64,000 bases of DNA from Limisphaerales bacterium (GTDB taxonomy: Bacteria; Verrucomicrobiota; Verrucomicrobiia; Limisphaerales; UBA11358): the NCBI GenBank assembly GCA_052145735.1, contig JBKQOA010000010.1, positions 38,169-102,168 of the forward strand, in the 5' to 3' direction. The notes beneath the pieces were generated by a model. It was not told the origin of the DNA. It searched no databases and saw only the letters and a program-made list of their open reading frames with translations. Shown in pieces: positions 5,867-62,363 of this stretch. A program made the translations under genes and the position numbers. How positions within the stretch are numbered: position 1 is the stretch's first letter; every line of letters begins with the position of its first letter.

Positions 5867-5920
5867 CGGGCTCCTTTGTAGGCGATTTTTCCGGCGCGGC
5901 AAGGACGGAAATGGCCGCTT

Positions 5921-7969: not shown

Positions 7970-8144
7970 GGCGCGTTGGAACCGGTTTTTCGCACCACCA
8001 GAGTGGAGACAATTCCCGGTTTTTTCCAATAAAAAGGCATTGCATTTTTCCACCGGGCAGGCAGTATGGGCGCGGCAGGAAACAGCTCGACTACCTGCCG
8101 CTTGGCCGCAACATCGGTTCCTCACGACCAGGAAAATTGTCAGC

Positions 8145-8873: not shown

Positions 8874-8884
8874 ATTTTGCGGCT

Positions 8885-9298: not shown

Positions 9299-9314
9299 AC
9301 CGCCTGCAAAAAAA

Positions 9315-10094
9315 ATGCGTCATTGTTACCGCGGGGTCCACCTGCTGTTGCTGACGATTTTGATCGTCGGCCCGGCATTTTTTTCGCCGAAGCCGAAGGA
9401 GGACGATCTCCAGGTGCTCGACGTGATTCCGGCCAATTTGATTGACGCGCCCTTCAACAGCGGTGTCGCCGATGCCACGCCTCCTCCGCCCGCGCCGGTC
9501 GCTCCGCCGACCCCGCCGCCGCCCGTTCCCATGGTCACCGCCCCGGAGCCGGTGACGCCGAAAGTGGAGCCACCCAAACCCGTCATCAAGGAAGCGGACA
9601 AGGCGCTGACCCCGCCGGAAAAACCGAAAGAGGCGCACAAGCCGCAAATCAATACCCAGCTCGTGACACGGACCGCACCCAAAGCGTCTCCCAATGCCAA
9701 TGACGCCGCCCGGGCGCGGGCCATCCGCAACGCGGTCAGGAAGTTGAAAAACAATCTCACCTCGGCCACGACCATTGACATGCCCGGCAACAGCAGCGTG
9801 GCGTACGCGAACTATGCCACGGTGGTCAAAAATATTTACGACCAGGCCTGGACATTGCCGGCCACGGTTCTTGGTGGTGACGAAGTCACAAAAGTCAGCG
9901 TCACCATTGCCAGTGATGGCACCGTTATTTCTGCGCGCATCGTTACTCCATCTGGCGACGCGAATTTGGATGCTTCCGTGCAACAAACCTTGGAACGTGT
10001 CAAATTCATCGCGCCATTCCCGGAAGGTGCGACGGAAAAAGAGCGGATTTACCCAATTAGTTTCAATCCTGAAATCAAACGAATGCTCGAATGA
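9315..10094 (+). CDS. TolA/TonB-like energy transducer (TM anchor, Pro-rich linker, TonB_C-like domain)
   Basis: Hydrophobic anchor VHLLLLTILIVGPAFF, Pro-rich PPPPAPVAPPTPPPPVP and C-terminal VSVTIASDGTVISARIVTPSGDANLDASV. The start is uncertain (see the finding on 9295). Confidence 0.65.
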   Translation: MRHCYRGVHLLLLTILIVGPAFFSPKPKEDDLQVLDVIPANLIDAPFNSGVADATPPPPAPVAPPTPPPPVPMVTAPEPVTPKVEPPKPVIKEADKALTPPEKPKEAHKPQINTQLVTRTAPKASPNANDAARARAIRNAVRKLKNNLTSATTIDMPGNSSVAYANYATVVKNIYDQAWTLPATVLGGDEVTKVSVTIASDGTVISARIVTPSGDANLDASVQQTLERVKFIAPFPEGATEKERIYPISFNPEIKRMLE

Positions 10095-11272
10095 AAAACT
10101 GCCTAAAAATATTACCGATTTTGATTGCGGTCCTTGCCGCCGGGCTTGCCCGCGGCCAGAACAATCAGGGCGAAATTGTTATCACGCGCCCGGTTTCTGT
10201 GCTTGGAAGCACCAAACCCATTCCTGTCTCACTCGACGGGTTCAGCGGCGAGGTCGCGGACGTTTTAAAATTTGACCTTTACGTCCAGGGTTTCTCGTTC
10301 GTCGCTCCGGATGCGGCACAATATCAAATCAGCGGCACCGGCGCCGGTAGCGTGCAGGGACGGGTCGTGGACCGGCTGGCCAAGAGCCCCATCCTGACGC
10401 GCAGCTACACCGGCGCGTCGTTGCGGCGGCAGGCACACGCGTTCGCCGACGACATCGTGCAGGCCATCACGCACAAGAACGGCATCGGGCAGACCAAGAT
10501 CGCGTTCAAGGCGCAGGCGCCGGGCGGCAACGGCGAAATTTTCGTGGCCGATTTTGACGGGCACAATGCCCAAGCCGTCACCCATGACAACACGATTGTC
10601 GCCGCGCCCGCGTGGGTGCCGGACCGGCTGGCCCTCTATTACGATTCCTACAAACTCGACAACCCCGACATCTGGTACCACAACCTGACCACCGGACAGC
10701 GTCACGTCATCGCCCATTATTCCGGTTCAAACATCAGCCCCGCGGTTTCACCGAATAGCGCGCGGGTGGCGATGATTTTGAGCAAAAGCGGCAGCCCGGA
10801 TGTGTGGGTGAGTGATGCTGACGGCTCGAATTTAAAACAATTAACCCGCACCCCCGAGGACTCCTCGCCATGCTGGTCGCCGGACGGACAATGGATTTGC
10901 TTCGCGACGAAGTTGAATGAACGGCGCATGCTCGCCAAGGTGCCCGCGGGCGGCGGCGAGGTGCAGCGCATCCCGACTCCCGGTGCGCCGAACCCAACCG
11001 AACCCAACTGGTCGCCGGACGGCAAATGGATCGCGTTCACCTCGCAGGCGGGCGAGTTCGACATCTGCGTGATGCCCGCCGACGGGAGCGCGCCGCCCAC
11101 GGTGCTGGTGGCGGGCGAAGGTCCGTCGTGGTCGCCGAATTCGCGGACGCTGATTTTTACGCGGCGCGCCGGAGGCCGCTACTCGCTATCTGTGCTTGAC
11201 GTGTTCACCAAACAAGTCAAGGATATTGCCCGGATTTCAGGCAACGATTCTCAGCCGGCTTGGGCAAGATGA
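10091..11272 (+). CDS. tolB: Tol-Pal system beta-propeller protein TolB
   Basis: 393-aa ORF with ATGA overlap to the upstream gene. Has a signal peptide and repeated SPDG/WSPDG beta-propeller blades. Confidence 0.9.
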   Translation: MKNCLKILPILIAVLAAGLARGQNNQGEIVITRPVSVLGSTKPIPVSLDGFSGEVADVLKFDLYVQGFSFVAPDAAQYQISGTGAGSVQGRVVDRLAKSPILTRSYTGASLRRQAHAFADDIVQAITHKNGIGQTKIAFKAQAPGGNGEIFVADFDGHNAQAVTHDNTIVAAPAWVPDRLALYYDSYKLDNPDIWYHNLTTGQRHVIAHYSGSNISPAVSPNSARVAMILSKSGSPDVWVSDADGSNLKQLTRTPEDSSPCWSPDGQWICFATKLNERRMLAKVPAGGGEVQRIPTPGAPNPTEPNWSPDGKWIAFTSQAGEFDICVMPADGSAPPTVLVAGEGPSWSPNSRTLIFTRRAGGRYSLSVLDVFTKQVKDIARISGNDSQPAWAR

Positions 11273-11310
11273 TTTTGACTTTTTAACAAACTTTTAACCG
11301 AAGGAAAAAA

Positions 11311-11895
11311 ATGAAAATGATGAAACTGACATGTTTACTGATATTCGCGGTGGCCGTCACGCTGGCCGTGACCGGTTGCAAAAACCACCGCCCCGTCGGA
11401 GTCACGAAGTTACCACCGGGGGCGGGAAGCACACTCCCTGAATCTTCTCCGGGCGGCACTTTGCCGGGAGGTGAACAGCCGACTGCTGGCGGTGGTCCTT
11501 TGCCGCCGATTGAAGAAATTGACAACATGAACGCGGACCGCGCGGCACTGGCCGCTTACACGGTGCATTTTGCCTACGACAGCGCCGCCGTGAGAAAGAG
11601 CGAGAAAGCGAATATCCAGGCTGTGGCCGACGCGTTGGGCCGGGATGCGAGCGCCAAACTGCTCATCGAGGGAAATTGCGACGAACGCGGCACGGAGGAG
11701 TACAACCGCTCGCTCGGCGAGCGCCGCGCGCTGGCCGTTCGCCAGGCGCTGGTCAAACTCGGCATTGATTCCATGCGCGTCGTCACCAAGAGTTACGGCA
11801 AGGACAAGCCGGTAGATGACGGTCACAACGAAGCGGCCTGGGCAAAAAACCGCCGCGATGATTTCGTCATGCTCCACCCCAAGAGCGGGTCCTGA
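11311..11895 (+). CDS. pal: peptidoglycan-associated lipoprotein (OmpA-family C-terminal domain)
   Basis: Lipobox LAVTGC. OmpA-like region FAYDSAAV...IEGNCDERGTEEYNRSLGERRA...NRRDDF. Immediately follows tolB. Confidence 0.85.
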   Translation: MKMMKLTCLLIFAVAVTLAVTGCKNHRPVGVTKLPPGAGSTLPESSPGGTLPGGEQPTAGGGPLPPIEEIDNMNADRAALAAYTVHFAYDSAAVRKSEKANIQAVADALGRDASAKLLIEGNCDERGTEEYNRSLGERRALAVRQALVKLGIDSMRVVTKSYGKDKPVDDGHNEAAWAKNRRDDFVMLHPKSGS

Positions 11896-11922
11896 ACCCG
11901 GGCAAATTTAAGGTTGTCCCAT

Positions 11923-11952
11923 GGCCGCGCGGGTCGCGCGGCCATTGTTTTT
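11923..11952 (+). terminator. rho-independent terminator after pal
   Basis: Perfect stem ggccgcgcg / cgcgcggcc with loop ggt, followed by attgttttt. Confidence 0.7.
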
Positions 11953-12086
11953 GGCAGTGTCTCAATCTGGTGGCGGCGGTGCCGCCGTGGCGCACCCCCA
12001 GGTTCAAATCCGGACATTGCCTTGTTTTTTTGGCGCTTTACTATCGGTGGAAGCGGGCGTAGGCTTGGCAAGGCTCGACAAAACTT

Positions 12087-43374: not shown

Positions 43375-43602
43375 ATGAAAACAACCTGGTTCAAACGTTG
43401 GGGCTGGTTTTACCTCCCTGTTTCACTGCCGGGAATTATCATCACCCTGGCGGCACTGGCATTTTGTGCGCAGGTGTTCCGGGCCATTGACCGGCATTCA
43501 CATTCGGTCAGCGACACGCTGTACGGGGTGTTTCCGTTCTTTGCCTGTTGCTTTTTACTGTTCGATTGGATTGCCCGGAGAACCAGCCGCCCACCGGATT
43601 AA
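43375..43602 (+). CDS. small hypothetical two-TM membrane protein
   Basis: ATG at 43375, 13 nt after the ispH stop. MKTTWFKRWGWFYLPVSLPGIIITLAALAFCAQVF...VFPFFACCFLLFDWI. Confidence 0.4.
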   Translation: MKTTWFKRWGWFYLPVSLPGIIITLAALAFCAQVFRAIDRHSHSVSDTLYGVFPFFACCFLLFDWIARRTSRPPD

Positions 43603-43607
43603 GTCGC

Positions 43608-45047
43608 ATGAATGAGATCGCTTCCATTCAACCGGCTTTGAGCACAGTTCCCGGCACGGCGGGCGCCCGGAAACGCATCCTGCTGATCACGCCGGAAAAC
43701 CCGGAGATCAACCGGGTGCGCCGGCGACAATTCAACAATTTCACCCAAATCACCATGCCCTACCTCGCGGGATTCATTGACGAAGCCCGCTACCAGATTG
43801 AATTGGTGGACGAATACAACCAACGCATCCCTTACGAGCGGCCGGTTGATCTCGTGGCCATTACGGTGAACACGCCCAATGCTCCGCACTGTTATCGCAT
43901 GGCGGCGCGTTTCCGGTCCGGCGGCGCCCGGGTGGTGATGGGTGGACCGCACGCCACGCTGCGGCCGGAGGAGGCGGCGCAGCACTGCGACCATCTGGTG
44001 GTGGGCGAAGCGGAGGAAACCTGGCCGCGATTTCTGGACGAATTTCATCGTGGCGGCGCCCGGCCGCGCTACACCAGCGATCATGCGCCTTCGTTGCAGG
44101 GTCTCCCGATTCCGCGCCGCGATCTGATCCGGCGCCGGCACTTCACGAAGGGGGCGGTGTTCGCCACGCGGGGCTGTCCCTTCGCTTGCAGCTATTGCAA
44201 CCTCAAACAGATTTATCACGGCGGATTTCGCACCCGCCCGGCGCCTGAAGTGGTGGCGGACATTCAAAGCATGGGAAACCGGTACTTCGTTTTCTGGGAT
44301 GACAACTTTTTCGGCGACCTGGACTATGCCGCCCGGCTGATGACCGCGCTCAAGCCGTTGCATCGGCGGTGGGCGGCACAGGTGAGCATTGACCGTTGTG
44401 CCGACGAACGATTGCTGCAACTCGCCCGCGAGGCCGGCTGTGTCTATTTGTTCATCGGCCTGGAATCTTTTTCGGCGGCAAGCCTCGCCAGCGTCAACAA
44501 GGGGTTCAACCAGGTGCCACGCTATGCAGAAATCATTCAACGCATCCATCGGCACGGCATCTGCGTGCAAGCGGGCGTGATTTTTGGTTTCGACACGGAC
44601 GGCAAAGACGTTTTCGCCCGCACACTTGACGCCTGCGAATCTCTGGGCATTGATGGCGTGACGGTGAGCGTGCTGACCCCCCTGCCCGGCACGCGGCTTT
44701 ATGATGAGATGCAGCGGGAGGGCCGGTTGGTCACCGGCGACTGGGCCTGGTTCAACGGCAAGACGCACGTGGCCTTTCAGCCGAAGCAACTGACCGCGGA
44801 AGAGTTGTTTTCCGGATACATGTGGTTCCGCCGGCGTTTCTTCTCCTTCCGATCCATGCTGAAACGGATGTCCGTGTCGCGGACGAATCTCGTCCACAAC
44901 CTCCTCGTAAATCTGGGTTACAAATGGTCTCTCCGGGCCACGGCCAGGCCGGAGCTGATCCCCGGATCTGAACCCCGTCGCGGCGATTTTGTCGGGACAA
45001 TTTTCAAGGCGGTGTGCAGATTGATGTTCGCATGCAGGCGCACCTGA
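43608..45047 (+). CDS. B12-binding-domain radical SAM protein
   Basis: ATG at 43608. The N-terminal Rossmann-like region (RILLITPEN...VDLVAITV...VVMGGPHAT) is followed by the CPFACSYC (CxxxCxxC) cluster. Confidence 0.85.
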   Translation: MNEIASIQPALSTVPGTAGARKRILLITPENPEINRVRRRQFNNFTQITMPYLAGFIDEARYQIELVDEYNQRIPYERPVDLVAITVNTPNAPHCYRMAARFRSGGARVVMGGPHATLRPEEAAQHCDHLVVGEAEETWPRFLDEFHRGGARPRYTSDHAPSLQGLPIPRRDLIRRRHFTKGAVFATRGCPFACSYCNLKQIYHGGFRTRPAPEVVADIQSMGNRYFVFWDDNFFGDLDYAARLMTALKPLHRRWAAQVSIDRCADERLLQLAREAGCVYLFIGLESFSAASLASVNKGFNQVPRYAEIIQRIHRHGICVQAGVIFGFDTDGKDVFARTLDACESLGIDGVTVSVLTPLPGTRLYDEMQREGRLVTGDWAWFNGKTHVAFQPKQLTAEELFSGYMWFRRRFFSFRSMLKRMSVSRTNLVHNLLVNLGYKWSLRATARPELIPGSEPRRGDFVGTIFKAVCRLMFACRRT

Positions 45048-45308: not shown

Positions 45309-46868
45309 ATGATGCCACAAAATCAGCCGACATCCGCGCCTGTTTTGATGGGCATCTGCCGCCAGGCCAACGCCGCCCTTCTGGTCCTGATCGCGCTTTT
45401 CTTTTTTTTCCTCCCGGTAGTTGTCACCGTTCACGACCTGTCGGACCCAAACATCCGGTCCGCCGGCATTCCTCGGTCCGCCTGGAAGCTTCACCGGGTT
45501 TTATCGCCCCAGTTTGAGCGATGGGCCAGGAAACGTCTCGCCTCCACGCGTGCGGCAGAACTGCCCACCACCAATATTTCGGGAACGGAATGGCCGTTGT
45601 TCGGCGCGGTGTTTTATCTCTGGGCCACGGAATCGCTCCAGACGGAATGGGAAAAACGCCGCGCTCCTCAAATCGTGGCGCCGAACGTTTATGCCCGCGG
45701 CGCCATCGAGGCCGCGACACGCCTGGTCATTGATCCCACACAGGCGAACTGGGTTAAAATTCACTGGGGCAAAAACTATTTGAAAACTGAAAATGTGTTT
45801 TACCGGATGCTCGTCATTGCCGCGCTGACCAGCCACGCCCGACTTACCGGCGACAAGGAATACCTGCCCTGGTTGAGGGATCAGGTTGACAGTTTGTCCG
45901 TTGAGCTGGATGCCAGTCGCCATGGCCTGCTGGATGATTATCCGGGCGAATGCTATCCGGGCGACGTGCTGACGGCGATTGCGATGATACACCGGGCGGA
46001 CAAGGTCCTGGGGACTGATCATTCGGCATTTGTTGCCCGTGCCCTGCGGGGTTTTCAAGACCAGACGCTGGATTCCCGGGGGTTGGTCCCCTACTTCGCC
46101 GTCGCGCCGCTGGGAGAACCCGTCGATTCAAGCCGTGGTTGTGGCAATTCTTACGTCTCACTCTTCTCGCCGGAAATCTGGCCCGAACAGGCCCGAAAAT
46201 GGTATGACCTTTACACGCAATATTTCTGGCAGGAATCCTGGACCTGCGCAGGATTTCGGGAATTTCCGAATGACGAGCCAGACAACAACTGGCACTTCGA
46301 TGTGGATTCCGGACCGGTACTCAAAGGTTTTGGTTGTGCTGCCTGCGCGTACGGCGTCGGAGCCGCCCGGGTCAACGGCCACTTCGAACACGCCTATCCG
46401 CTGACCGCAGAAATGTTGGTCACTTCGTGGCCGCTGCCGAACGGCACACGGCTCTTTCCGCGGCTGCTTTCCAACGCGGCTGATGCTCCTTGCCTTGGCG
46501 AGGCCGGGATCCTATTCAACCTCACCCGCCTGCCGGCTGAAGGGGTTCCCATCAAGACCGGCGGTTCGATGCCTGTGTTTGTCCTGATTTTTTTGGCGCT
46601 GCAATCCGGGATTGGCCTGATGCTGCTGACCGCTTCCATCCTGTCACTTCGTCGATGGCGAAAATATCATGCCGCAATGCTGCTTCATCGACCGGGCCTC
46701 CAATTTGGCATCTGGGCCGGACTATTGATTGCCTGTGCCCTCTGCCTGTTTCTTGGCCAAACGCTCCCCGCGTTGCTTTTCCTGGTCTGCGCTCAACTCT
46801 TTCCCCGGTATCAGCCAAAGGTGGTTGCTCCCGCGGAACCGCCCACCGGCAAGCCGGTTGAAACATGA
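45309..46868 (+). CDS. hypothetical membrane-anchored protein with a ~380-aa extracytoplasmic domain
   Basis: 519 aa. One N-terminal TM (ALLVLIALFFFFLPVVVTV) and two C-terminal TMs. The Cys- and Trp-rich central domain has no motif I recognise. Starts 4 nt after the previous ORF. Confidence 0.5.
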   Translation: MMPQNQPTSAPVLMGICRQANAALLVLIALFFFFLPVVVTVHDLSDPNIRSAGIPRSAWKLHRVLSPQFERWARKRLASTRAAELPTTNISGTEWPLFGAVFYLWATESLQTEWEKRRAPQIVAPNVYARGAIEAATRLVIDPTQANWVKIHWGKNYLKTENVFYRMLVIAALTSHARLTGDKEYLPWLRDQVDSLSVELDASRHGLLDDYPGECYPGDVLTAIAMIHRADKVLGTDHSAFVARALRGFQDQTLDSRGLVPYFAVAPLGEPVDSSRGCGNSYVSLFSPEIWPEQARKWYDLYTQYFWQESWTCAGFREFPNDEPDNNWHFDVDSGPVLKGFGCAACAYGVGAARVNGHFEHAYPLTAEMLVTSWPLPNGTRLFPRLLSNAADAPCLGEAGILFNLTRLPAEGVPIKTGGSMPVFVLIFLALQSGIGLMLLTASILSLRRWRKYHAAMLLHRPGLQFGIWAGLLIACALCLFLGQTLPALLFLVCAQLFPRYQPKVVAPAEPPTGKPVET

Positions 46869-46975: not shown

Positions 46976-47518
46976 ATGCGGCATGACCCGCCTTCGCCAG
47001 CTTCGGCGCGGCAAAAACCGGAACTCGAACGGCTCTATGACGAGCACGCCCAGGCACTTTATGCCTTTCTTCTGAACCTGACCCGCGACGAGGCTGACAC
47101 CCGCGACCTGCTTCAGGACATCTTCGTCAAACTGGCCCGCGAGGAACAGATGCTCAACGGCGTGCGGGACGAACGCGCGTTTCTCATCCGGCTGGCCCAC
47201 AACGCCGCGATTGACTTGATGCGCCGACGCGGGACGCGGGCGAAAACCTGCGACCAATTCGCCGCCGAAGTCATTTCACCGTTTGCCCCCGCCGGCAATC
47301 CGGACGACCGGACCTTTCGCGCCGTGCTGGCCGAAGCGCTGGCCGAGTTGCCGGCGGAGCAGCGCGCGGTGGTGCATTTGAAATTATGGGAGCGACTGAC
47401 CTTTGAGCGGATCGCCGAGGCCTTGGACATTCCGCTGAACACCGCGGCCAGCCGGTATCGTTACGGCTTAGACAAATTGCGCGAGCGGCTGCGTCCCCTT
47501 TACGAAGAAATCAAATGA
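46976..47518 (+). CDS. ECF-type RNA polymerase sigma factor
   Basis: Region 2 (LYDEHAQALYAFLLNLTRDEADTRDLLQDIFVKL) and region 4 (LPAEQRAVVHLKLWERLTFERIAEALDIPLNTAASRYRYGLDKLR). Confidence 0.88.
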   Translation: MRHDPPSPASARQKPELERLYDEHAQALYAFLLNLTRDEADTRDLLQDIFVKLAREEQMLNGVRDERAFLIRLAHNAAIDLMRRRGTRAKTCDQFAAEVISPFAPAGNPDDRTFRAVLAEALAELPAEQRAVVHLKLWERLTFERIAEALDIPLNTAASRYRYGLDKLRERLRPLYEEIK

Positions 47519-47976
47519 ACATGGATGATTTTGAACATAAACTTCAACGCCAGCCGTTGCGGCAGGTCCCCGCCGGATGGCGCGAAGAAATTCTAGCAGC
47601 TGCCGATGTGAATCGGCGGCAAGTCATAAACCGGGAAGAAGTTGGCCGCGGATTCACATCCGCGGCTACGCGCTCTACTTGGCTCTCAACCGTCAACGCT
47701 CAACTCTCAGCCATCCTGTGGCCTCATCCCAAGGCCTGGGCCGGTCTGGCGGCGGTCTGGGTTTTGATTTTTGCCGTGAATTTTTCGATCCGCGACAAGT
47801 CACCGGTCATGGCGGGAAAATCCGCACCCACGTCGCCGGAAGTCATGGTGGAGTTAAGACAGCAACAGCGGATGCTGGTGGAATTGATCGGCCTGCGTGA
47901 CACGCGCGCGGCTGACCGGGCCAAACCCCTTGTCCCGCAGCCGCGCAGCGAGCGGGCGGAGATTTTGATGACGTGA
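47515..47976 (+). CDS. putative anti-sigma factor (single-TM protein coupled to the ECF sigma gene)
   Basis: ATGA overlap with the sigma gene. One TM (AWAGLAAVWVLIFAVNF). The call is by position only. Confidence 0.45.
   Translation: MNMDDFEHKLQRQPLRQVPAGWREEILAAADVNRRQVINREEVGRGFTSAATRSTWLSTVNAQLSAILWPHPKAWAGLAAVWVLIFAVNFSIRDKSPVMAGKSAPTSPEVMVELRQQQRMLVELIGLRDTRAADRAKPLVPQPRSERAEILMT
47603..47665. repeat. in-frame hairpin element inside the anti-sigma-like gene
   Basis: ccgatgtgaatcggcgg (47603-47619) pairs with ccgcggattcacatccgcgg (47646-47665), with a 10-bp perfect core gatgtgaatc/gattcacatc. Encodes ADVNRRQVINREEVGRGFTSAA. Confidence 0.7.
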
Positions 47977-48035: not shown

Positions 48036-49790
48036 ATGAACGAAGAGCCCAAAAGCATCTGGAAAAAGTCATGGAAAGGCCGGAGTGCGATTCTGATTTG
48101 GAGCGCGCTCATTGGCCTCGCAATTTTTCTGGCGATTCTCATTGCCGCCGCGGGAAAGCTGGACACGACGTTGGGCGGCAGTTTTGCGGCCGCCGCGTTT
48201 ATCGGCATTGTCGTTGTCATCTGCGGTCTCTTTGCCATCTACGCCGTGGTTCCGTTTCTTCGCTGGTTGCTTTGGAAACACTGGCGGCGAACGCTTTTTG
48301 GCTTTGCCTGTTTCATCACCTTGATCGCACTATTTTATGCCGAGGAGGACTGGCGCGGGAAACGGGACTGGGAAAAATTCAAACACGAATGGGAGGCCAG
48401 GGGCGAAAAATTTGATCGGGCCAGCGTGGTTCCGCCGCCCGTGCCGCAGGATCAGAATTTTGCGCTGACGCCGGTTGTCGCCAGCAGTTATGAAACGTTT
48501 CTGGACAAAAGCGGGCAGGCTTTGTCGCCGCGAAACACCAACGTCGTAAACCGGCTGCAAATGAGCATTTATGGCGACCAGGCGTTGTGCAAAGGGCCCA
48601 CCAATGGCACGGGCGACTGGCGAACCGCCAAAACCTGCTCCTTGGACGCCTGGCAACAATACTACCGCGCCTTGGCTGCCAAAACGAATGAGTTCCCCAT
48701 TCCACCACAACCACAATCGCCCGCCGCCGATGTGTTGCTCGCGTTGAGCAAATACGATTCGACGATTGAGGAACTGCGCCAGGCGGCCCGGTTGCCTGAA
48801 TCGCGTTTCCCGCTGGAATACGGCAAGGACTACCCGCCGGCCATGTTGCTGCCGCATCTGGCGCCAATTAAAGGATGCGCGCAAGTGCTTCAACTGCGCG
48901 CCCTCGCCGAATTGCAAAACGGCCAAAGTGAAAAGGCGACGGACGACGTGAAATTGTCGCTGCGACTGGCGGATGCCCTTCGCCCCGAGCCAATTTTGAT
49001 TTCGCACCTGGTCCGGATTGCCTTGACGCAAATCGCGTTGCAGCCGGTTTGGGAGGGATTGGCGGAACACCAATGGTCGGAGGCACAGCTCGCCGGGCTT
49101 GAGCAGGAACTGGCCAGGTTGGATTTTCTGGCGGATTATAAACTGGCCATGCGTGGAGAGATGGTGCTGTGCCAGGGCGGCGCCATGGATTATCTACGCC
49201 ATCACCCGGATCAGATTGTGAATCTGGGGAATGACAATAACTCTGACTATCCTCCGAGTTCATTCATGTTGCATTTGATTCCCGGCGGCTGGTTTTATCA
49301 AAATCAATTGCATTGCGCCCGTCCGATGGTGGAATTTTATCTGCCCGCGGCGGATGTAAATCAGGGGATTATTTCACCAACCGTCACCCGTCGGGCGGAT
49401 GCAGCCGTTGCCGCTGACGCCAAAAAACTCAACCCTTACAACCTGGTTGAGAGACTATTGCTGCCGGCGCTGGGCATCGCCGCGAGGAAATTCGCCTTCG
49501 GGCAAAATGAGGTGAATCTGGCGCGCACGGCTTGTGCGCTGGAACGCTATCGCCTTGCGCACGGCAAATATCCCGAAGCACTCGACACGCTGGCGCCGCA
49601 GTACATTGCCAAAGTGCCGCACGATGTCATCAACGGCCAGCCGCTGCATTATCGCCGCGAGGCAAACGGACAATTTGTGCTCTATTCGGTCGGCTGGAAC
49701 GAAACGGACGAGGGTGGAGAGATCAGCCTCACAAAGTATGGCGTGGATGTATCGACCGGTGACTGGGTCTGGCGGTATCCTTCGAAGTAA
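48036..49790 (+). CDS. hypothetical membrane protein with large extracytoplasmic domain
   Basis: 584 aa with three N-terminal TMs. The C-terminal segment VINGQPLHYRREANGQFVLYSVGWNETDEGGE resembles the C-terminal beta-domain pattern of type II secretion pseudopilins. Confidence 0.5.
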   Translation: MNEEPKSIWKKSWKGRSAILIWSALIGLAIFLAILIAAAGKLDTTLGGSFAAAAFIGIVVVICGLFAIYAVVPFLRWLLWKHWRRTLFGFACFITLIALFYAEEDWRGKRDWEKFKHEWEARGEKFDRASVVPPPVPQDQNFALTPVVASSYETFLDKSGQALSPRNTNVVNRLQMSIYGDQALCKGPTNGTGDWRTAKTCSLDAWQQYYRALAAKTNEFPIPPQPQSPAADVLLALSKYDSTIEELRQAARLPESRFPLEYGKDYPPAMLLPHLAPIKGCAQVLQLRALAELQNGQSEKATDDVKLSLRLADALRPEPILISHLVRIALTQIALQPVWEGLAEHQWSEAQLAGLEQELARLDFLADYKLAMRGEMVLCQGGAMDYLRHHPDQIVNLGNDNNSDYPPSSFMLHLIPGGWFYQNQLHCARPMVEFYLPAADVNQGIISPTVTRRADAAVAADAKKLNPYNLVERLLLPALGIAARKFAFGQNEVNLARTACALERYRLAHGKYPEALDTLAPQYIAKVPHDVINGQPLHYRREANGQFVLYSVGWNETDEGGEISLTKYGVDVSTGDWVWRYPSK

Positions 49791-55443: not shown

Positions 55444-56397
55444 CTACAGTCCCAAGTTGTTCGCCATGATGCCGATGACGGTCAATGGTCCCTGATCTTC
55501 CAGGCTGTCGGCGGCCTTGTCCACCTTCTGCAGCGTGAGCTTGGCGTTCTTGTAAAAGTCCTGTTCGTTGACGAGCTTGCCGATCGTGCCCTGGCCCTGG
55601 TTGATCTTCAGCAAAATCTGATCGAGGTTGGTCATCGAGGCCGTGGTCGCGTTGTAGAGGGTTGCATCGGTCACCAGCTTGCCGATCGTGCCCTGGCCGT
55701 TGGTGATCCCGCTGACCACCCCCCGCACTTCGACGACGGTGTCCTGCAGGTTGGTGACGGTGACCAGCGCGGAGTTGTAGAGTGTATCCGAGTAGATCAA
55801 TTTGCCGACCGTGCCCTGGCCGCTCGCGATCTGGCCGGAAATGTTCTCGATGTTGGAGATGGCTCCGCCGAGGTGGCCGCTGTTTTGTTTGACGAAATCC
55901 ACCAGCGGCCCCATCAAATTATTGATGGTATCGGGCGTGAAGCTCTTGGTGAGGTTTTGGATGCCGGTGGTGGCGCCATCCAGTTTGGTCATGATGGCAT
56001 TGAGGTCCGGTTGTTCCTCCGTCGTGAGCACCATGCCGTCGGTCGCGCGGGGCGCATCGGTCGAGCCAAAATCAACAGCCACAAAATTCTGGCCCATCAG
56101 GCCGGTGAATTTGACGACCGCCTTGCTGTCCGTCTTCACCACGGCGTCGGAATGAAGTTTCATCGTGACCTTGACCTTGTTGCCGGTGAGCGCGATTTTT
56201 TCGACACGGCCAACCTCCACGCCGGCCATTTTAACACTGTTGCCGACCTTCAAATCCTGCACCGTGTCGAACAGGGCGTTGAGACGGTAGCCGCCGTGGA
56301 AGGATTCCATGCCGCCGAGCGTTTCCATGATGAAGAAGGCGGCGAAGATGACGAGAACGACAAATACGCCCAGGCGGGTTTCAAGTGAGTTTTTCAT
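55444..56397 (-). CDS. mlaD: MCE-domain protein (MlaD-like) with repeat-containing C-terminal extension
   Basis: N-terminal TM plus MCE domain (YRLNALFDTVQDLKVGNSVKMAGVEVGRVEKI). Three C-terminal GQGT(I/V)GKL(I/V) modules. Confidence 0.85.
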   Translation of the reverse strand: MKNSLETRLGVFVVLVIFAAFFIMETLGGMESFHGGYRLNALFDTVQDLKVGNSVKMAGVEVGRVEKIALTGNKVKVTMKLHSDAVVKTDSKAVVKFTGLMGQNFVAVDFGSTDAPRATDGMVLTTEEQPDLNAIMTKLDGATTGIQNLTKSFTPDTINNLMGPLVDFVKQNSGHLGGAISNIENISGQIASGQGTVGKLIYSDTLYNSALVTVTNLQDTVVEVRGVVSGITNGQGTIGKLVTDATLYNATTASMTNLDQILLKINQGQGTIGKLVNEQDFYKNAKLTLQKVDKAADSLEDQGPLTVIGIMANNLGL

Positions 56398-56409
56398 AAA
56401 ATTTCGAGC

Positions 56410-57168
56410 TCAAGGTTCGCGTTTAAAGTCGGCGTGCAAAAATGTTTGGACGAGCGGGTCCTGGTAACTTTTCACTTCATCGGGGGTGCCGATGATGAGG
56501 ATGCGGCCTTCGTTGATGACGGCAATGCGGTCGGCCACGCCAAACGCGAGGTCCCGGTCATGCGACACCACGAGCGACGTGACGTGAATGCGCCGCTGGA
56601 GATGGAGAATCTCCTCGCCAATCATCACGGATGAAAGCGGATCCAGCTCGCTGGTCGGCTCGTCGTAAAGAATCAGTTGCGGCTCGATGATCAGCGCCCG
56701 GGCAATGGCGGCGCGCTTTTTCATGCCGCCGGAAAGCTCGCTGGGCATTTTGTCCTCGGTGCCTTTGAGCCCGACGTCTTCGAGTATTTCACCAACGATG
56801 CGGGCGATTTCCAGCGGCGGTTTGAGCCGGTGCTCGCTCAGGTACAGCCCGACATTCTCCCCGACGGTCAGCGAATTCAGCAGGGCGCCGGACTGGAAGA
56901 CCATCGCGAGCCGGTATTTGGTGGCGATTTCCGGCGATTGGATGGATTCGCCGTTGATAAGGATCTCGCCGGCGTCGGGCGGTTCGAGCCCGATGAGATG
57001 TTTGAGCAGCACGCTTTTGCCGCTGCCGCTGGGCCCCATGATGACAAAGATTTCGCCCGGCCGGACCTCGAAATCAATGCCCTTGAGCACTTCCTGCCCG
57101 CCAAAACTCTTGCGCAGGCCATGCACTTGCAGGCTGACTCCGGAATGGTTGCTGGTCGAAGTGTTCAT
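56410..57168 (-). CDS. mlaF: ABC transporter ATP-binding protein (MlaF-like)
   Basis: Walker A GPSGSGKS, signature LSGGMKKR and Walker B LILYDEP. Confidence 0.9.
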   Translation of the reverse strand: MNTSTSNHSGVSLQVHGLRKSFGGQEVLKGIDFEVRPGEIFVIMGPSGSGKSVLLKHLIGLEPPDAGEILINGESIQSPEIATKYRLAMVFQSGALLNSLTVGENVGLYLSEHRLKPPLEIARIVGEILEDVGLKGTEDKMPSELSGGMKKRAAIARALIIEPQLILYDEPTSELDPLSSVMIGEEILHLQRRIHVTSLVVSHDRDLAFGVADRIAVINEGRILIIGTPDEVKSYQDPLVQTFLHADFKREP

Positions 57169-57905
57169 TATTTCAACAGGACCCGCGTCAGCACGTAGTC
57201 AAAAATCACAATCAGGACAATGGAATTGACGACCGCCTTGGTGACCGAGCGGCCGATGCCCCGCGGCCCGCCGATGGTCGCCAGGCCTTGATGGCACGAA
57301 ACCGCCCCGATGATCAGCGCGAAACAAAAGCTCTTGAATACGCCGTTGGCCACGTCCTTCAATTCCACCACGTCGCGCAAATTGGCCCAAAAGGACTGAA
57401 ACGGAATCGCAATGTGGCTGTTGGTCTGGGCCACCACCGCGCCGCCCAGCCAGCCGACCAGGATGGCAAAAACCACCAGCATCGGCAGCGCCACCGCAAT
57501 GGCCAGGAGGCGCGGCAGCACCAGATAATGCACCGGGTTGATGTTCATGGTGCGCAGCGCGTCAACCTCTTGATAAACGCGCATGGAACCAATTTCCGCC
57601 GCCATGGCCGAGCCAATGCGGCCGGCAATGAGGATGGCCATCATCACCGGCGCCAGTTCCTTGGCCATCGCGATGCCAACGATGCCGCCGACGGCGCTGG
57701 CCAGGCCGCGTTCGACCAGCACCGGGCCGGTTTGCAGCGCGATGACCGCGCCGATGAAAAACGACAGCATGCAGACCATCAACAGGCTGGCGTTGCCGAT
57801 TTCAAAGAATTGGTCGAAGACCTTCTGGCGCTGCCGCCAGGCCAGCGGCAGGGACAGCAGCGTGCGCCAGAACAGCAGGACGATTTCTCCGATGTTTTCA
57901 AACAT
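57168..57905 (-). CDS. mlaE: ABC transporter permease (MlaE-like)
   Basis: 245 aa, polytopic. Contains ELAPVMMAILIAGRIGSAMAAEIGSMRVYQEVDAL. Its stop overlaps the mlaF ATG by 1 nt. Confidence 0.9.
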   Translation of the reverse strand: MFENIGEIVLLFWRTLLSLPLAWRQRQKVFDQFFEIGNASLLMVCMLSFFIGAVIALQTGPVLVERGLASAVGGIVGIAMAKELAPVMMAILIAGRIGSAMAAEIGSMRVYQEVDALRTMNINPVHYLVLPRLLAIAVALPMLVVFAILVGWLGGAVVAQTNSHIAIPFQSFWANLRDVVELKDVANGVFKSFCFALIIGAVSCHQGLATIGGPRGIGRSVTKAVVNSIVLIVIFDYVLTRVLLK

Positions 57906-57908
57906 AAC

Positions 57909-59381
57909 TCATTTCACCGGATGGTCCGCCGCCGCCTGCCAGTTGAGCAACGGCACGTAAAACAGTCGCATTTTTCTCATTTCCGCATCCGATTGATACT
58001 GGAAAAGCCCGAACAGGAGCGAGCATTTTCTGGATGCGGGGCTCGTGTCGCGCCGATACAGGTTCCAGAGCAACGACTGGCTCGCCGCGCCAGCCTTCGG
58101 GTTGTTCTCCGAACGCCACAATGACCACAACGGCGACCAGTTGCGTTCGACCCCCCGGTTGTTGGGCAGCGCCGATTCAACCAGCGCGAGGACCTGCAGC
58201 CGGCGGGTGCCGTTGAATTCGCGGTGCCAGGTGAACAACGGCCAGCAATCAACCCGCTTGCGCTCCGCCCCGGTTTCGACGTTCTTTTCCGTCACGTCCT
58301 GAAACAGGTAGAACAGGATGCGGGTGCGCTCCCGGTCCAGCACAGGGGTGTGCAGGCGGTTGTATTTGTAAAGCGGCCAGAGATAATAATCGTTTTCCAT
58401 GGTATCGTTGTGTGAACGGCTGAACAACGGCCAGAACCGGGTGGTGGTTTTGCCTTCGCCCCGGGCGACAACAACAATCGGCCAGGGGCCTTCCCATTCG
58501 TGATATTTCCTTTCTCGGTCGTCAATCCAGGTGAACAAAGGCCAGATCACGGTCGTGACATCGCGTTCCGGCGAACGTGTCAGGCTGTAAAGCGGAATCA
58601 CCGCGCGGAATTTTTCCGGATTGGCGGTGCCCAGCCCGTTGTTCTGGCGGAAATAAACCGGCCAGAGGGCGAAGAACCGGTCATGGCCGCCAATGATCTC
58701 GGTGTCGCCGAAACCGTTGGTGCTCATCGTCACGTCCTTGTGTTCGTTGCCCGCCAGCGGCCAGAATTGCCAGCCCTGCAGCCCATCCCCGTGACGCAAA
58801 TGGAAGAACGGGAACAGATAGTTATCGGTGACCACGTCGCGTTTGCGGGTTTCGCTGTAAAGCGGGAACAGGACGACAAAAATGTCGTCACGGAAGAGCC
58901 GGTCCTTGATGTGCCCGTAAAATGGAACCAACGCAGTGTAATTCCGGTTCAGGTCGGGCGAGCGTTGCTGAAAATAGAGCGGGAAAATGGTGAAGCGCCT
59001 GGCCAGGGCATCATCCGGGTTCTGACCGCCGGAAAAACTGATCAACTCGCCCAACTGCCAGCGGTATTCCATGCCAAATCGCTCGTACGTCAGCACTGGA
59101 TAAAGCAGATCGAATTCCTTTGATTCCGTGGCCGGGTCGGTGTCGTACGAAAGCAGCGGCGGGATGGCCCAGGTCCATTCCGAATCTTTCTGCTGGTCAT
59201 AAAACAACGGGCCGACGGCTTCGTTGCGATGGCCGGCATCCAGTGTCAGCGCAAACTCATCGAAGACCGGCCCGGCGTGAAAGCCTTCTTCAGCCAGGAC
59301 AGCGCCCGGCAAACCGATCACCAGGCTCAAGCCGAAAATCCGCAGGTCATGAATGAATGCCTTGAGCCGGGCAAAAATCAT
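57909..59381 (-). CDS. secreted repeat protein (~20 degenerate WPLF-type repeats), function unknown
   Basis: ATG at 59381 gives the signal peptide MIFARLKAFIHDLRIFGLSLVIGLPGAVLA. Recurring FPLY, WPLF, IPLY, WPVY and WPLY motifs occur every ~20-35 aa. Ends 3 nt before mlaE. The track ORF start (59426) is a TTG. Confidence 0.55.
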   Translation of the reverse strand: MIFARLKAFIHDLRIFGLSLVIGLPGAVLAEEGFHAGPVFDEFALTLDAGHRNEAVGPLFYDQQKDSEWTWAIPPLLSYDTDPATESKEFDLLYPVLTYERFGMEYRWQLGELISFSGGQNPDDALARRFTIFPLYFQQRSPDLNRNYTALVPFYGHIKDRLFRDDIFVVLFPLYSETRKRDVVTDNYLFPFFHLRHGDGLQGWQFWPLAGNEHKDVTMSTNGFGDTEIIGGHDRFFALWPVYFRQNNGLGTANPEKFRAVIPLYSLTRSPERDVTTVIWPLFTWIDDRERKYHEWEGPWPIVVVARGEGKTTTRFWPLFSRSHNDTMENDYYLWPLYKYNRLHTPVLDRERTRILFYLFQDVTEKNVETGAERKRVDCWPLFTWHREFNGTRRLQVLALVESALPNNRGVERNWSPLWSLWRSENNPKAGAASQSLLWNLYRRDTSPASRKCSLLFGLFQYQSDAEMRKMRLFYVPLLNWQAAADHPVK

Positions 59382-59552
59382 GATGCCTTTAAACTGAAAG
59401 ACCGGATTGTGACAGGATTTGGACAAAGGAGTTATGCCTCGCGTTATCGTTATTGGAAATGGGATTCTTCCGTTTTTGAGTTGTTAACAGTCAGGTTTAA
59501 CATTGATATTGACTTCCTCTGAAATTTCTTTATGTTTTACGCGATTGAGGTT

Positions 59553-62363
59553 TTACCTCGGTTCCTCCTGACCCAGTGTCGACGGCGATTTGTCGGCGCT
59601 GGGTTGTTTTATTAACGGACGCCACCGGCCCAGCAAATTCAACAACGCCGGCAAAAGGGTCAATCCCGCAATCATGCACGCGGCAATCCCTGTCGCCATG
59701 ACACACCCCAAGCTGTGAATGCCGCGGTCTTTGGCGATGATCAGACTGCCGAAACCGGCGATGGCCGTCAACCCGGACACCAACACGGCCTTGCCCGTGC
59801 TGCGGGCCAGGATGTTCGGTGTGCGCTCTTCGGCAAAACGATTCAGGATTTGAATGCCATTCGTCACCCCGATGCCAATGACCAGGGGCAGGGTCATGAT
59901 GTTTGCCAGATTGACCGGAATGCCAAACCAGCCCATCAATCCCGCGAGCCAAAGCGTGCCAATGCCGACCGGCAACAAAGCCAGAATCACCGAGCCGAGG
60001 CTGCGAAAGTGGAACAAAACCAGCACGGCAATCGCCGCCAAAGAATACCAGGCCGCCTGGATGTAACTGTCTTTGAGCAGCTCCTCCAGTTCGTAAAGCT
60101 GCACCGGCGTGCCGGTGACATTGGGATCCACCGTCCGCAATTCAGCAATGAATTTTTCCTGATTCTCGCGCTGCCACATATTGTCTCGGGGAAAGATGTG
60201 CAGCAGGAACTTCCCGGTCACGCCCACAAATTGGTCGCGAAAGACCTGGGGCAGATCCTCCACGTGCAAAGGCGCGCTGTCATCCTGGTTTTGCAGCAAC
60301 TGGAACGTCGTACGCATGTCGTTGAACAGCGCCTGCTGAAATTGCGCCAGCTTGTCCGCGTGCTCCGCAAGCGTATTAGTGTCGCCTTGTAACATCGTCT
60401 TGCGCAAATCTTCAATCGCCTCGCGTAGCGAGACCAGATTCTTTGTCAGTTCCGGGTCGCTGGTACCCACCTCGTCCTTGGCCAGCCCCAAGTAGCCGTA
60501 AAGCCCATAAAGCGTCCGGCTGAACGCATAGACATCCACGGAACCCAAGTCCGGCGTGCCAAACTCCAGCGGCGCCAGTTCCTGCTTGATTTGGCCAATC
60601 AACTTGAGCTTCTCGGCGTTGCTCGAGTTCAGAAAGTTTTCAAAAAAACTGGCCGGGGGCTCGACATCCACCACCGTCGGCAGCTTTCTGATTTTTCCCT
60701 CCAAATCAATGGCCTGGGGCAGGGAATCGGCGACGACCGCAGCTTCCAGCATGGACTGGTCCGCCGCCAGCAGCTTATGCTCAAACACCACCGAGGGCAG
60801 TCCGGCACTCTGCAGTTTTTCCAGATTGTAATCAAAATAGACCTTGCGCGCCTGGACCAGCGCCAGGGCGCACAGGACGGCCATGATCACCATTACCAGC
60901 ACGGGGCGTTGCAACCATAAATTCTCGATGCGCGCGCGGGTGTCGTCTTCGGAAGACCGGTGATCCATGATGTTTTGCCGGCCGCGCAACAACAGGGCCG
61001 GCAACAACGTCATCATCGGAATGAAGCAGATCAACAAGCCGCCGCCACAGATGATGCCCATTTCCTGGATGCCCTTGAAATGGGTGAAATACATCGCCAG
61101 AAACGCTCCGGCCGTCGTCAAAGCGCCGGTGAAAATGCCCTGCCCGGTAAAAACCATCGCTTTCGTCAAGGCGGCTTCCTCCGTTTTGCCGTGCCGCAGC
61201 TCCTCCTCATAGCGGGTGATCAAATGCACACCATAATCAATTCCCAGTCCAATGAGCATCGGCACAAAGGGCAGCGTCAGGACGTTCAAATGTCCGACCA
61301 CCAGCGTGGTAAACGCCAGCGTGTAGGCCAGCCCGACCACCAGGCAGATTGTCGCCTTCACCGGCCGGCCGGTTTCATTGTATCCGTAGATGAAAATCAA
61401 CGCACAGAGCACCAGCGACAGGATGCTGGCGACGGTGATGTCTTTTTGCGACTGCATCGTTTCGTCGTAATCCAGCACCGGTTCTCCGATCAGCCCGACA
61501 TTGAGGCCGGGCACCTCGCTTTGGGTCTGCTGGAGGAGCTGGCGCAGGCGATCAATCGCATAACCATTCAATTCATCCTGCGTTTGCCTGACCGGCTGGC
61601 GCAAAGGTTCCGCAACCGGACTATTTGTTTCCGCATTGGGCACGTACGCGTTCACCAGAAAAATCCGGCCACGATCGAAGGTGATGTAGGTGTTCGTTTC
61701 GCTGCCCGCATTGAAAAGCGACGTGACACTGGGTGACGGCGGCGCGCCGGGCCTTCCCAGGCTGTCGGCCGCCTGCCTCACAATGCGCGTCAAAGCCGGC
61801 AGCGCCTGGACCAACGATTCCGTCTGGGCGTTCGTTTCCCGGGGTGCGGTGCGAAAGGCCGTGTTGACCTGGTCGAAAAACGAGATGAGATTCGTTGTCG
61901 GCGTAAACTGGCGGATGAACGGCAGGGTGTCGTCGAGTTTCCCTTTCAGCTCAATCAGATCATCCTCGTCAGCGAACAGCAGGGCCTTTGCCCCCATCAC
62001 CGACAGGCTTTGCTGGTAAAAAACGTCGCGGAACAGATTGGTTTCCGCCTGCATCTTCGCGGCGATGCGTTCCACAAACTGCCGGTTTTTCTCGAGGTCG
62101 TCGCTCTCCACCACCACCACGAGACGGTTGCCCTGCTGGGGAAATTCCTTCTGCAGTTTGAGAAAATTCTGATGGTACTTCTGGTTGGCCCCCACCAGGT
62201 TGTCCCGGTTCATGTCGGTCTTCAAATAGCCGACGGTGTAAAGGATGCTGGCCAGAAAAAGCACCGCTTGCGAGTAGATGAACCAACGCGGGTGGCGAAT
62301 GACTGCCGCCGCCAGCCTGGCCAGCAACCGGGCAAGAAGGGAATTGGCGCTTAATGCTTTCAT
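59553..62363 (-). CDS. RND-superfamily lipid exporter (MMPL / HpnN-like)
   Basis: 936 aa. Two blocks of about six TM segments, each preceded by a large soluble loop. N-terminus ...HPRWFIYSQAVLFLASILYTVGYLKTDMNRDNLV is typical of HpnN/MMPL exporters. Confidence 0.82.
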   Translation of the reverse strand: MKALSANSLLARLLARLAAAVIRHPRWFIYSQAVLFLASILYTVGYLKTDMNRDNLVGANQKYHQNFLKLQKEFPQQGNRLVVVVESDDLEKNRQFVERIAAKMQAETNLFRDVFYQQSLSVMGAKALLFADEDDLIELKGKLDDTLPFIRQFTPTTNLISFFDQVNTAFRTAPRETNAQTESLVQALPALTRIVRQAADSLGRPGAPPSPSVTSLFNAGSETNTYITFDRGRIFLVNAYVPNAETNSPVAEPLRQPVRQTQDELNGYAIDRLRQLLQQTQSEVPGLNVGLIGEPVLDYDETMQSQKDITVASILSLVLCALIFIYGYNETGRPVKATICLVVGLAYTLAFTTLVVGHLNVLTLPFVPMLIGLGIDYGVHLITRYEEELRHGKTEEAALTKAMVFTGQGIFTGALTTAGAFLAMYFTHFKGIQEMGIICGGGLLICFIPMMTLLPALLLRGRQNIMDHRSSEDDTRARIENLWLQRPVLVMVIMAVLCALALVQARKVYFDYNLEKLQSAGLPSVVFEHKLLAADQSMLEAAVVADSLPQAIDLEGKIRKLPTVVDVEPPASFFENFLNSSNAEKLKLIGQIKQELAPLEFGTPDLGSVDVYAFSRTLYGLYGYLGLAKDEVGTSDPELTKNLVSLREAIEDLRKTMLQGDTNTLAEHADKLAQFQQALFNDMRTTFQLLQNQDDSAPLHVEDLPQVFRDQFVGVTGKFLLHIFPRDNMWQRENQEKFIAELRTVDPNVTGTPVQLYELEELLKDSYIQAAWYSLAAIAVLVLFHFRSLGSVILALLPVGIGTLWLAGLMGWFGIPVNLANIMTLPLVIGIGVTNGIQILNRFAEERTPNILARSTGKAVLVSGLTAIAGFGSLIIAKDRGIHSLGCVMATGIAACMIAGLTLLPALLNLLGRWRPLIKQPSADKSPSTLGQEEPR

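Follow-up and report, generated by a model that had tools for sequence, protein, structure and literature searches.

Introduction

[quoted passage not shown] MCE proteins form hexamers, and their C-terminal helices can build a needle that spans the periplasm. In the PA3211-PA3214 and PqiABC systems, the MCE protein docks through its C-terminal peptide into a ring of outer-membrane lipoproteins (PMC13631591). A comparable chimeric Mla-Pqi system is found in Brucella (PMC12436622). According to a phylogenomic survey (Grasekamp et al., 2023; PMC10665443), MlaEFD alone is widespread and ancestral outside the Proteobacteria, and MlaABC is largely a proteobacterial addition. The same survey describes the MlaD proteins of the PVC and FCB phyla as lacking a beta-barrel that reaches the outer membrane, unlike the MlaD of Veillonella. 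With only MlaEFD in most bacteria and a barrel-less MlaD in these phyla, the far end of the lipid bridge is left unexplained (PMC10665443). Here, a gene cluster is described from a 64-kb stretch of DNA of a Limisphaerales bacterium (GenBank assembly GCA_052145735.1, contig JBKQOA010000010.1, positions 38,169 to 102,168). The whole stretch is called the window, and coordinates follow its numbering. The cluster lies on the minus strand and encodes MlaE, an ABC ATPase and MlaD together with a secreted repeat protein. The name REP is used for both this gene and its product. The known kind of system in this cluster is an MCE/ABC lipid transporter with a periplasmic needle; what is new is a widespread accessory component with an apparently new fold.

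A gene for an HpnN-like inner-membrane transporter of the resistance-nodulation-division (RND) type lies upstream of REP. In Proteobacteria, HpnN has been proposed to act with two partners, the MlaC-like HpnM and the MlaA-like HpnS (PMC12324291). BstABC has been proposed as a three-compartment transporter set for sterols (PMC10942540). An initial annotation of the window had treated the RND gene, REP and mlaEFD as one supercluster for envelope lipid transport.

A Conserved REP-mlaEFD Module

REP (57909-59381) encodes 490 residues when read from the ATG at 59381, and its longest open reading frame (ORF) begins at a TTG at 59426. The REP stop codon lies 3 nucleotides (nt) before the ATG of a gene encoding an MlaE-family ABC permease (57168-57905; 245 residues). 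The stop codon of mlaE and the start codon of the ABC ATPase gene in the mlaF position (56410-57168; 252 residues) share one base (TAATG). After a gap of 12 nt follows mlaD (55444-56397; 317 residues). The permease matches Pfam MlaE (PF02405, E 6e-72) and scores above the cutoff of TIGR00056 (228 versus 212 bits). The ATPase matches Pfam ABC_tran (E 2e-34) and scores below the cutoff of the MlaF equivalog NF008809 (168 versus 441 bits), so its role as MlaF is assigned from context. By their family matches, MlaE and the ATPase are predicted to be the inner-membrane ABC part of the machine.

The initial annotation had listed five co-directional minus-strand genes, headed by a two-loop RND exporter with 12 transmembrane (TM) segments and followed by a repeat protein with a signal peptide. 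All five ORFs were found in place, both protein descriptions held up, and the junctions were as claimed: a 171-nt AT-rich spacer, the 3 nt, the mlaE/mlaF overlap and the 12 nt. It had further pointed to a lack of MlaA, MlaB and MlaC. None of MlaA (PF04333), MlaC (PF05494) or a STAS-type MlaB was found among the roughly 50 larger ORFs scanned across the window. For the ORFs scanned the absence stands, while its special status does not, as it is the published norm outside the Proteobacteria (PMC10665443).

The conservation of the cluster was followed in three sets of loci. A genome-collection scan, covering close relatives only, gave 80 syntenic genome loci. These loci and the close REP homologues belong to the Verrucomicrobiota, order Limisphaerales. 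REP is followed by mlaE in 72 of the 74 testable species genomes of this order. The synteny spans yebC-RND-REP-mlaE-mlaF-mlaD-metF-porin-gspF, and because the whole stretch is kept, adjacencies within the Limisphaerales say little about linkage by themselves.

The distant loci carry the argument. Exact-protein look-ups of 11 distant homologues led to 11 loci, and in all 11 the gene directly downstream of REP is mlaE, whose start codon often overlaps the REP stop codon. An ABC ATPase gene comes next (it is not present in the two Geobacterales loci), followed by a gene for an MlaD with the Pfam domain PF28544 Helical_needle. A metagenome scan seeded with the Dadabacteria-type clade yielded another 80 loci with 24-83% identity to the seed. 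Fifteen of these were too short to test, and all 65 testable loci were linked to mla genes. The order begins with REP-mlaE in 51 linked loci and is permuted to mlaE-mlaF-mlaD-REP in the other 14, where REP begins a few nt after mlaD. Outside the Limisphaerales, no REP locus lacking mla linkage was found among the 11 distant and 65 testable metagenomic loci. The linkage extends over Verrucomicrobiota (Limisphaerales and Opitutales) and Thermodesulfobacteriota (Geobacterales and Dadabacteria-like lineages), and the flanking genes vary by lineage. Aconitase subunits flank the module in two Geobacterales loci, a TPR gene in two further loci (L090 and L091), and a methyltransferase and a peptidase gene elsewhere. 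Linkage that outlasts a change of gene order, deep divergence and a full turnover of the flanks is strong evidence of functional association. The REP-MlaEFD module is real.

Two observations on these loci can be added. An alanine racemase gene lies immediately upstream of the module in the inspected Thermodesulfobacteriota or Dadabacteria-type loci (L081-L083 and L159), in both gene orders. The permuted loci (L147-L154, L156, L157, L159, L160, L162 and L166) form a subgroup with the order alr-mlaE-mlaF-mlaD-REP, in which REP has about 440 residues and is about 30% identical to the other members.

REP Is a Secreted Beta-Hairpin Repeat Protein

The REP sequence carries a signal peptide of the Sec type and contains Phi-P-Phi-Phi (WPLF-like) motifs at least 14 times, mostly at intervals of 17-22 residues. 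The mature protein of about 460 residues contains 16% F/W/Y and has a calculated isoelectric point of about 6.2. The window protein matched no model of Pfam or NCBIfam. Likewise, 32 divergent members gave no match to Pfam at E values up to 1, and a REP profile found nothing among all PDB sequences at E values up to 10. The family itself is large, with more than 3,200 homologues. When clustered at 50% identity, an exhaustive search of cluster representatives gave 1,260 clusters at E <=1e-3 and 887 at E <=1e-10. Full-length members reach down to about 27% identity. Profile searches placed distant members in Thermodesulfobacteriota, Candidatus Dadabacteria, 'Deltaproteobacteria', Geobacteraceae and Opitutaceae. 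Two carriers are in culture, Geomesophilobacter sediminis (Geobacteraceae) and Lacunisphaera limnophila (Opitutaceae). All homologues are named 'hypothetical protein' in the databases and none bears a Pfam domain; the Pfam release that already includes PF28544 has no family for REP. One homologue (P0186, at 10001-11962 of locus L081) is 653 residues long. Its repeat domain is preceded by an N-terminal extension of about 200 residues, which is rich in P, E, S and A and within which a long segment is duplicated.

The structure of REP was predicted with AlphaFold2. A shallow alignment of 21 sequences (63-81% identity) gave a model with a pLDDT of 30. A deep alignment was built from distant homologues by two profile searches, and its 139 sequences (22-81% identity) gave a model with a pLDDT of 94.6 and a pTM of 0.83. 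Apart from the signal-peptide helix this model consists entirely of beta-structure, some 45 strands that are each 5-6 residues long, and REP is accordingly modelled as roughly 20 beta-hairpin repeats. Foldseek found no global match to the model in the PDB or BFVD (TM-score <=0.21, root-mean-square deviation 10-40 A). The matches obtained were all local ones to hairpin arrays, namely OspA, the CPAP G-box, the teneurin YD shell, the ApoB100 belt, WD40 tandems, MORN repeats and phage fibres; no outer-membrane protein barrel was among the matches. Judged from the model, the fold of REP is apparently new among solved structures.

Across the 139 sequences, the predicted hairpins are polarised lengthwise. 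Hydrophobic and aromatic character is strong at the end with the Phi-W-P-Phi-Phi turn, whereas polar or charged residues mark the opposite one. Hydrophobicity thus sits at one end of the hairpin and does not alternate along the strands. A lipobox-like motif is present in eight of the 139 members, and a C-terminal Phe or Trp in four. The lack of a terminal aromatic residue, the short strands and the mostly plain Sec signals argue against a classical outer-membrane barrel. Mean-field direct coupling analysis (410 homologues, Meff ~282) was also applied to the closure and stacking of the meander, and was rejected as evidence because it was too noisy. Its sole signal, couplings enriched approximately 2.4-fold between positions 30-40 residues apart, could also be produced by misalignment of the repeat register.

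REP Accompanies a Needle-Type MlaD

The MlaD of the window has a single TM segment (residues 9-27), followed by the MCE domain at residues 36-111 (Pfam MlaD/MCE, E 6e-19, 68 bits versus a cutoff of 25). Three helical needle repeats of the form GxGTxGKL come next, and the protein ends in a hydrophobic tail of about 15 residues. Its score against TIGR04430 OM_asym_MlaD, the proteobacterial equivalog, is 93 bits versus a cutoff of 135. The precomputed Pfam annotation of the protein includes PF28544 Helical_needle, marked as faint. No beta region long enough for a C-terminal barrel was found in this MlaD, in line with the barrel-less MlaDs published for PVC bacteria (PMC10665443).

These traits recur when REP-linked MlaDs of all lineages are aligned. 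They carry one to five helical repeats, each about 36 residues long and set off by the motif G-x-G-T-Phi-G-K-L, and share the tail [E/S]-D-x-G-P-Phi-S-V-Phi-G-x-x-x-G-x-L-F-COOH. The last residue is Phe in 103 of the 131 paired loci. The ...GL ending of the window MlaD is a natural variant that is present in about a fifth of the Limisphaerales. The MlaD of the permuted subgroup carries the RGEGTLGKL repeat five times and ends in the same ...LGLIF tail. One verrucomicrobial locus (L089) possesses a second mlaE-mlaF-mlaD set without REP, and the 410-residue MlaD of this set has neither the repeats nor the tail. These features lie at positions 1004-3938 and 5280-5879 of that locus, and an AsmA/DUF748 fragment is located between the two sets.

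The length of REP does not follow the number of needle repeats (rho 0.09, n = 131). The idea of REP as a ruler or sheath that scales with the needle was disfavoured for this lack of correlation. A constant REP size despite a varying number of repeats is what would be expected for a cap or dock rather than a sheath.

The RND Gene Is a Lineage-Specific Neighbour

The RND gene (59553-62363) encodes 936 residues. Pfam MMPL matches the protein in two stretches (E 2e-50). In the hydropathy profile the membrane segments fall into two groups, and a hydrophilic loop of about 250 residues comes before each group, as would fit a two-loop RND protein of 12 TM segments. The best NCBIfam model is HpnN (TIGR03480), and the score lies below its cutoff (523 versus 752 bits). 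The scores against NF052374 (297 versus 1100 bits) and BstA (263 versus 1400 bits) are also below cutoff. The sole full-length relative with a solved structure is HpnN of B. multivorans (5KHN/6WU0; E ~1e-44); MmpL3, MmpL4 and MmpL5 align to the membrane core only. No hopanoid genes (shc, or hpn genes including hpnH) were found among the scanned ORFs of the window. A B12 radical-SAM ORF at 43548-45047 was considered as a marker of hopanoid synthesis and rejected, since it scores 92 bits against HpnJ (cutoff 578) and is not HpnR either.

Within the Limisphaerales, the RND gene lies directly upstream of REP in 71 of the 72 testable loci. Two deeper lineages (L088 and L089), in which REP is 51-54% identical to that of the window, keep the RND gene upstream of REP with a gap of 36-46 nt. 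The unrelated yebC or ybjQ is likewise still in place in these two loci, so the RND-REP adjacency is no better kept than the surrounding synteny. Beyond this range the pair is not seen. No RND gene lies beside REP in any of the nine hand-checked distant loci or the 80 metagenomic loci; it is missing from a locus with a REP of 46% identity (L086), from the Opitutales locus and from all Thermodesulfobacteriota-type loci. One locus of the Limisphaerales scan (L078) has REP-mlaEFD without an RND gene. The adjacency is therefore confined to one verrucomicrobial clade, in which REP is at least 51% identical to that of the window. The RND gene is a lineage-specific neighbour and stands outside the conserved module.

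The spacer between RND and REP (59382-59552, minus strand; 171 nt) has a GC content of 38%, and the window has about 59% throughout. For spacers aligned from 76 Limisphaerales loci, the median length is 157 nt and the GC content averages 35%. They share the conserved blocks AAGTCAA..TCAATGTTA and CAATAACGATAACG, and the latter contains a TAACG direct repeat. No terminator-like site was found on the minus strand of the spacer, and a scan of the cluster for promoter and terminator consensus sequences performed no better than on shuffled sequence. Rfam gave no match in the window, spacer included. The AT-rich composition and the conserved blocks suggest a separate promoter or operator, and the spacer is probably the promoter or operator region of REP-mlaEFD. 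The RND gene probably has a transcriptional context of its own.

A Proposed Mechanism and Its Alternatives

With moderate confidence, we propose that the functional unit is REP-mlaE-mlaF-mlaD, an ATP-driven needle-type MCE lipid transporter with a dedicated secreted partner. For the part of the MlaEFD machine that is missing in the periplasm or at the outer membrane, REP is a strong candidate. The MlaD hexamer would form a periplasmic needle as in PqiB and PA3213, and REP would be an element of fixed size at the far, outer-membrane end of this needle. There, it may receive the tip of the needle or the C-terminal tail of MlaD, and the aromatic rim of REP could contact the inner leaflet of the outer membrane. 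REP would then do the job of the PqiC and PA3214 lipoproteins, of MlaA or of the MlaD barrel of Veillonella, while being unrelated to all of these. Attachment of REP to the outer membrane is a conjecture.

Several observations weigh against this proposal. A lipid anchor is lacking in 131 of the 139 REP members, and REP has neither a terminal aromatic beta-signal nor strands long enough to span a membrane. Some barrel-less MlaDs are predicted to form a small six-stranded terminal barrel of their own (PMC10665443), which might make a partner needless. Two Limisphaerales loci (L047, 3262-12285; L057, 6974-17230) keep the RND-REP pair without adjacent mlaEFD, and two Geobacterales clusters (L084, 10001-14441; L087, 10001-14334) consist of REP-mlaE-mlaD with no ATPase gene. 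In addition, the contact between REP and MlaD and the location of REP are putative.

Could REP work without a fixed place at the needle? In the main rival explanation, REP would be soluble in the periplasm and would carry lipid much as MlaC does, shuttling between the needle tip and the outer membrane. A Sec signal peptide mostly without a lipobox or an outer-membrane protein signature, a strongly aromatic and hydrophobic surface or interior, and a length that stays fixed whatever the length of the needle would all suit such a carrier, and the linkage to mlaEFD fits it equally well. However, the long needle and the conserved docking-type tail of MlaD suggest a bridge, and to our knowledge the known lipid shuttles are far smaller than a repeat-built protein of 460 residues. 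A shuttle is thus considered unlikely. An integral outer-membrane protein is very unlikely. Such a protein might be an unusual beta-barrel or a lipid portal like TGD4 or LptD, into which the MlaD needle would plug, and it would suit an all-beta, aromatic-rich secreted protein that is linked to a barrel-less MlaD. The predicted strands are nevertheless too short for a membrane crossing, the hydrophobicity is gathered at one hairpin end instead of alternating, a terminal Phe or Trp is rare, and barrels are missing from the Foldseek matches. The least probable explanation is that REP has no connection to lipid transport and is a conserved, co-transcribed neighbour, for example an unrelated periplasmic protein. 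REP does lack a recognisable functional motif and homology to any characterised protein. Yet its adjacency to mla genes survives across phyla, gene-order permutation and different flanks, the reading frames often overlap or nearly abut, and the linkage is specific to one MlaD subtype.

A different question is whether REP also serves the RND exporter, so that both inner-membrane transporters of this verrucomicrobial clade would share REP in one trans-envelope pathway. The near-constant RND-REP adjacency in the Limisphaerales, the short gap in the two deeper lineages and the two loci that retain RND-REP though mlaEFD is no longer adjacent all speak for such sharing. Furthermore, RND proteins of the HpnN/BstA type have been proposed to work with periplasmic and outer-membrane partners elsewhere (PMC12324291; PMC10942540). 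The RND gene is absent, however, from the REP loci outside the clade and from one Limisphaerales locus with an intact REP-mlaEFD, and a conserved, motif-bearing AT-rich spacer parts it from REP in the Limisphaerales. As yebC, ybjQ, metF and gspF are similarly conserved in the clade, the adjacency may be inherited synteny. A shared pathway is quite unlikely on this evidence, and the RND-MlaEFD supercluster is not supported as a functional unit; a functional tie of RND in this clade is conceivable, though not backed by evidence. The strongest combined claim, that REP is a new class of terminal component for MCE lipid bridges and in addition serves the HpnN-like RND protein in the clade of the window, is regarded as quite unlikely. 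If it were true, ATP-driven and proton-driven lipid transporters would converge on one periplasmic or outer-membrane element, and the outer-membrane connection of the barrel-less needle MlaD in Verrucomicrobiota, Thermodesulfobacteriota and related phyla would be explained.

For the initial annotation, the outcome is mixed. Its suggestion of the repeat protein as a partner of MlaEFD is borne out by linkage across phyla, in two gene orders and among unrelated flanks. The coupling of RND and MlaEFD into one pathway is not, since RND stands beside REP in one clade only and yebC and ybjQ are equally kept there. The neighbourhood survey that it had proposed accordingly confirmed the co-occurrence of REP with mlaEFD and did not extend that of REP with RND beyond the one verrucomicrobial clade. 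Of the family matches that it had expected, MMPL, MlaE, ABC_tran and MlaD were obtained, and the RND protein fell short of the TIGR03480 cutoff. The arrangement had also been presented as one not recognised as described. This holds for REP-MlaEFD, as no description of a REP-like MlaEFD partner was found in the literature searched, but cooperation of HpnN with Mla-type proteins had already been proposed (PMC12324291).

The value of the preferred reading, REP as the dedicated partner of MlaEFD, lies in what it offers for the unexplained end of the bridge. REP is a widespread secreted protein tied to exactly the barrel-less type of MlaD, which makes it a concrete and testable candidate for the missing end, with carriers in culture in both L. 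limnophila and G. sediminis. It would add a new fold to the parts used in envelope lipid transport, beside MlaA, MlaC, PqiC, LptD/TGD4 and AsmA-like proteins. For annotation, thousands of "hypothetical proteins" encoded beside mlaE or mlaD can be grouped and named.

The Surrounding Window and Other Loci

The neighbours of the cluster are yebC, ybjQ, a DUF2752 gene, metF, a BBP2 porin gene and gspF. The rest of the window is housekeeping in character, with genes for trigger factor, Tol-Pal, TatC, MurJ, TyrRS, PtsI, EF-P, SpeA, MutS, Ppx, IspH and others. The Tol-Pal-like cluster (7926-11895) includes an ExbB/TolQ-like gene, a PD40 TolB-like gene and an OmpA-domain Pal-like gene, and two large TPR proteins are encoded ahead of it (3923-8188). 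An ECF-type sigma factor is encoded at 46976-47518 and is overlapped by a small ORF (47515-47976). Two large ORFs without a Pfam or NCBIfam match flank this pair, at 45309-46868 (519 residues) and 48036-49790 (584 residues).

Some genes near REP in other genomes were also recorded. Downstream of RND-REP, PIN and DprA genes are located in L047, and a GH2/laminin-G protein is encoded in L057. A PF04240 (Caroten_synth) gene follows REP-mlaE-mlaD in the two Geobacterales clusters, and in L084 an AsmA-family gene is located about 4 kb further downstream. The GenBank titles of L010, L012, L020-L022, L045, L047, L052, L061-L063 and L070 name unrelated taxa (uncultured Bifidobacteriaceae, Ca. Acidoferrum, Methylomirabilota, Limnocylindrales, Sulfopaludibacter and Aquilonibacter). 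These titles look mislabelled, because the contigs share the order of the REP cluster and high protein identity with the Limisphaerales loci.

Comparison With Known Systems

The cluster of the window resembles the proteobacterial Mla system (MlaFEDB-MlaC-MlaA) in its MlaE permease, ABC ATPase and MCE-domain MlaD, which are encoded in that order. It differs in that the scanned ORFs hold no STAS MlaB, MlaC or MlaA, and REP matches neither the MlaC nor the MlaA model. In addition, MlaD of the window has needle repeats, and both MlaD and the ATPase score below their equivalog cutoffs. The three-component system of Veillonella parvula has mlaE, mlaF and mlaD without mlaA, mlaB or mlaC, and its long MlaD has an alpha-helical extension that was proposed to span the periplasm (Grasekamp et al., 2023; PMC10665443). 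The contiguous mlaE-mlaF-mlaD order in the window is as in this ancestral three-component type, and MlaD is again long, with 317 residues versus 183 in E. coli. The MlaD of V. parvula, however, ends in a beta-barrel of its own that is embedded in the outer membrane, whereas the barrel-less MlaD of the window comes with a separate REP gene. The accessible text of the survey reports no REP-like fourth gene (PMC10665443).

For the RND protein, the likeness is to HpnN, since the alignment with the HpnN structure of B. multivorans covers the whole protein. Its neighbours are MlaEFD and REP, and not the MlaC-like and MlaA-like proteins of the HpnN and BstABC systems. In its predicted structure, REP resembles other hairpin arrays, such as MORN repeats, the CPAP G-box, the single-layer sheet of OspA and the YD/Rhs shell. 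Locally, these arrays and REP have the same architecture, in which antiparallel hairpins follow one another with a period of about 18-23 residues. They differ from it in that none superposes globally or belongs to the same sequence family, and the Phi-W-P-Phi-Phi motif fits no Pfam repeat model.

Further likenesses are found in PA3211-PA3214 of P. aeruginosa, PqiABC of E. coli and Mpc of Brucella. PA3211-PA3212 and Mpc have an MlaE/MlaF-like ABC part, and all three systems combine an MCE protein with a long needle and an exported protein from the same operon at the outer-membrane end (PMC13631591; PMC12436622). The MlaD of the window, too, combines a needle region with a conserved tail at the C-terminus. 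The needle itself is different, being built from one to five GxGTLGKL-punctuated repeats. The exported proteins differ as well. PqiC-like lipoproteins are small alpha/beta protomers that form rings; REP is not a member of this group, as its predicted fold is an all-beta hairpin repeat, its length is about 460 residues, it matches nothing in Pfam or NCBIfam, and it usually lacks a lipobox. Finally, PqiABC, PA3211-PA3214 and Mpc occur in Pseudomonadota, whereas the hosts of the REP module are Verrucomicrobiota and Thermodesulfobacteriota.

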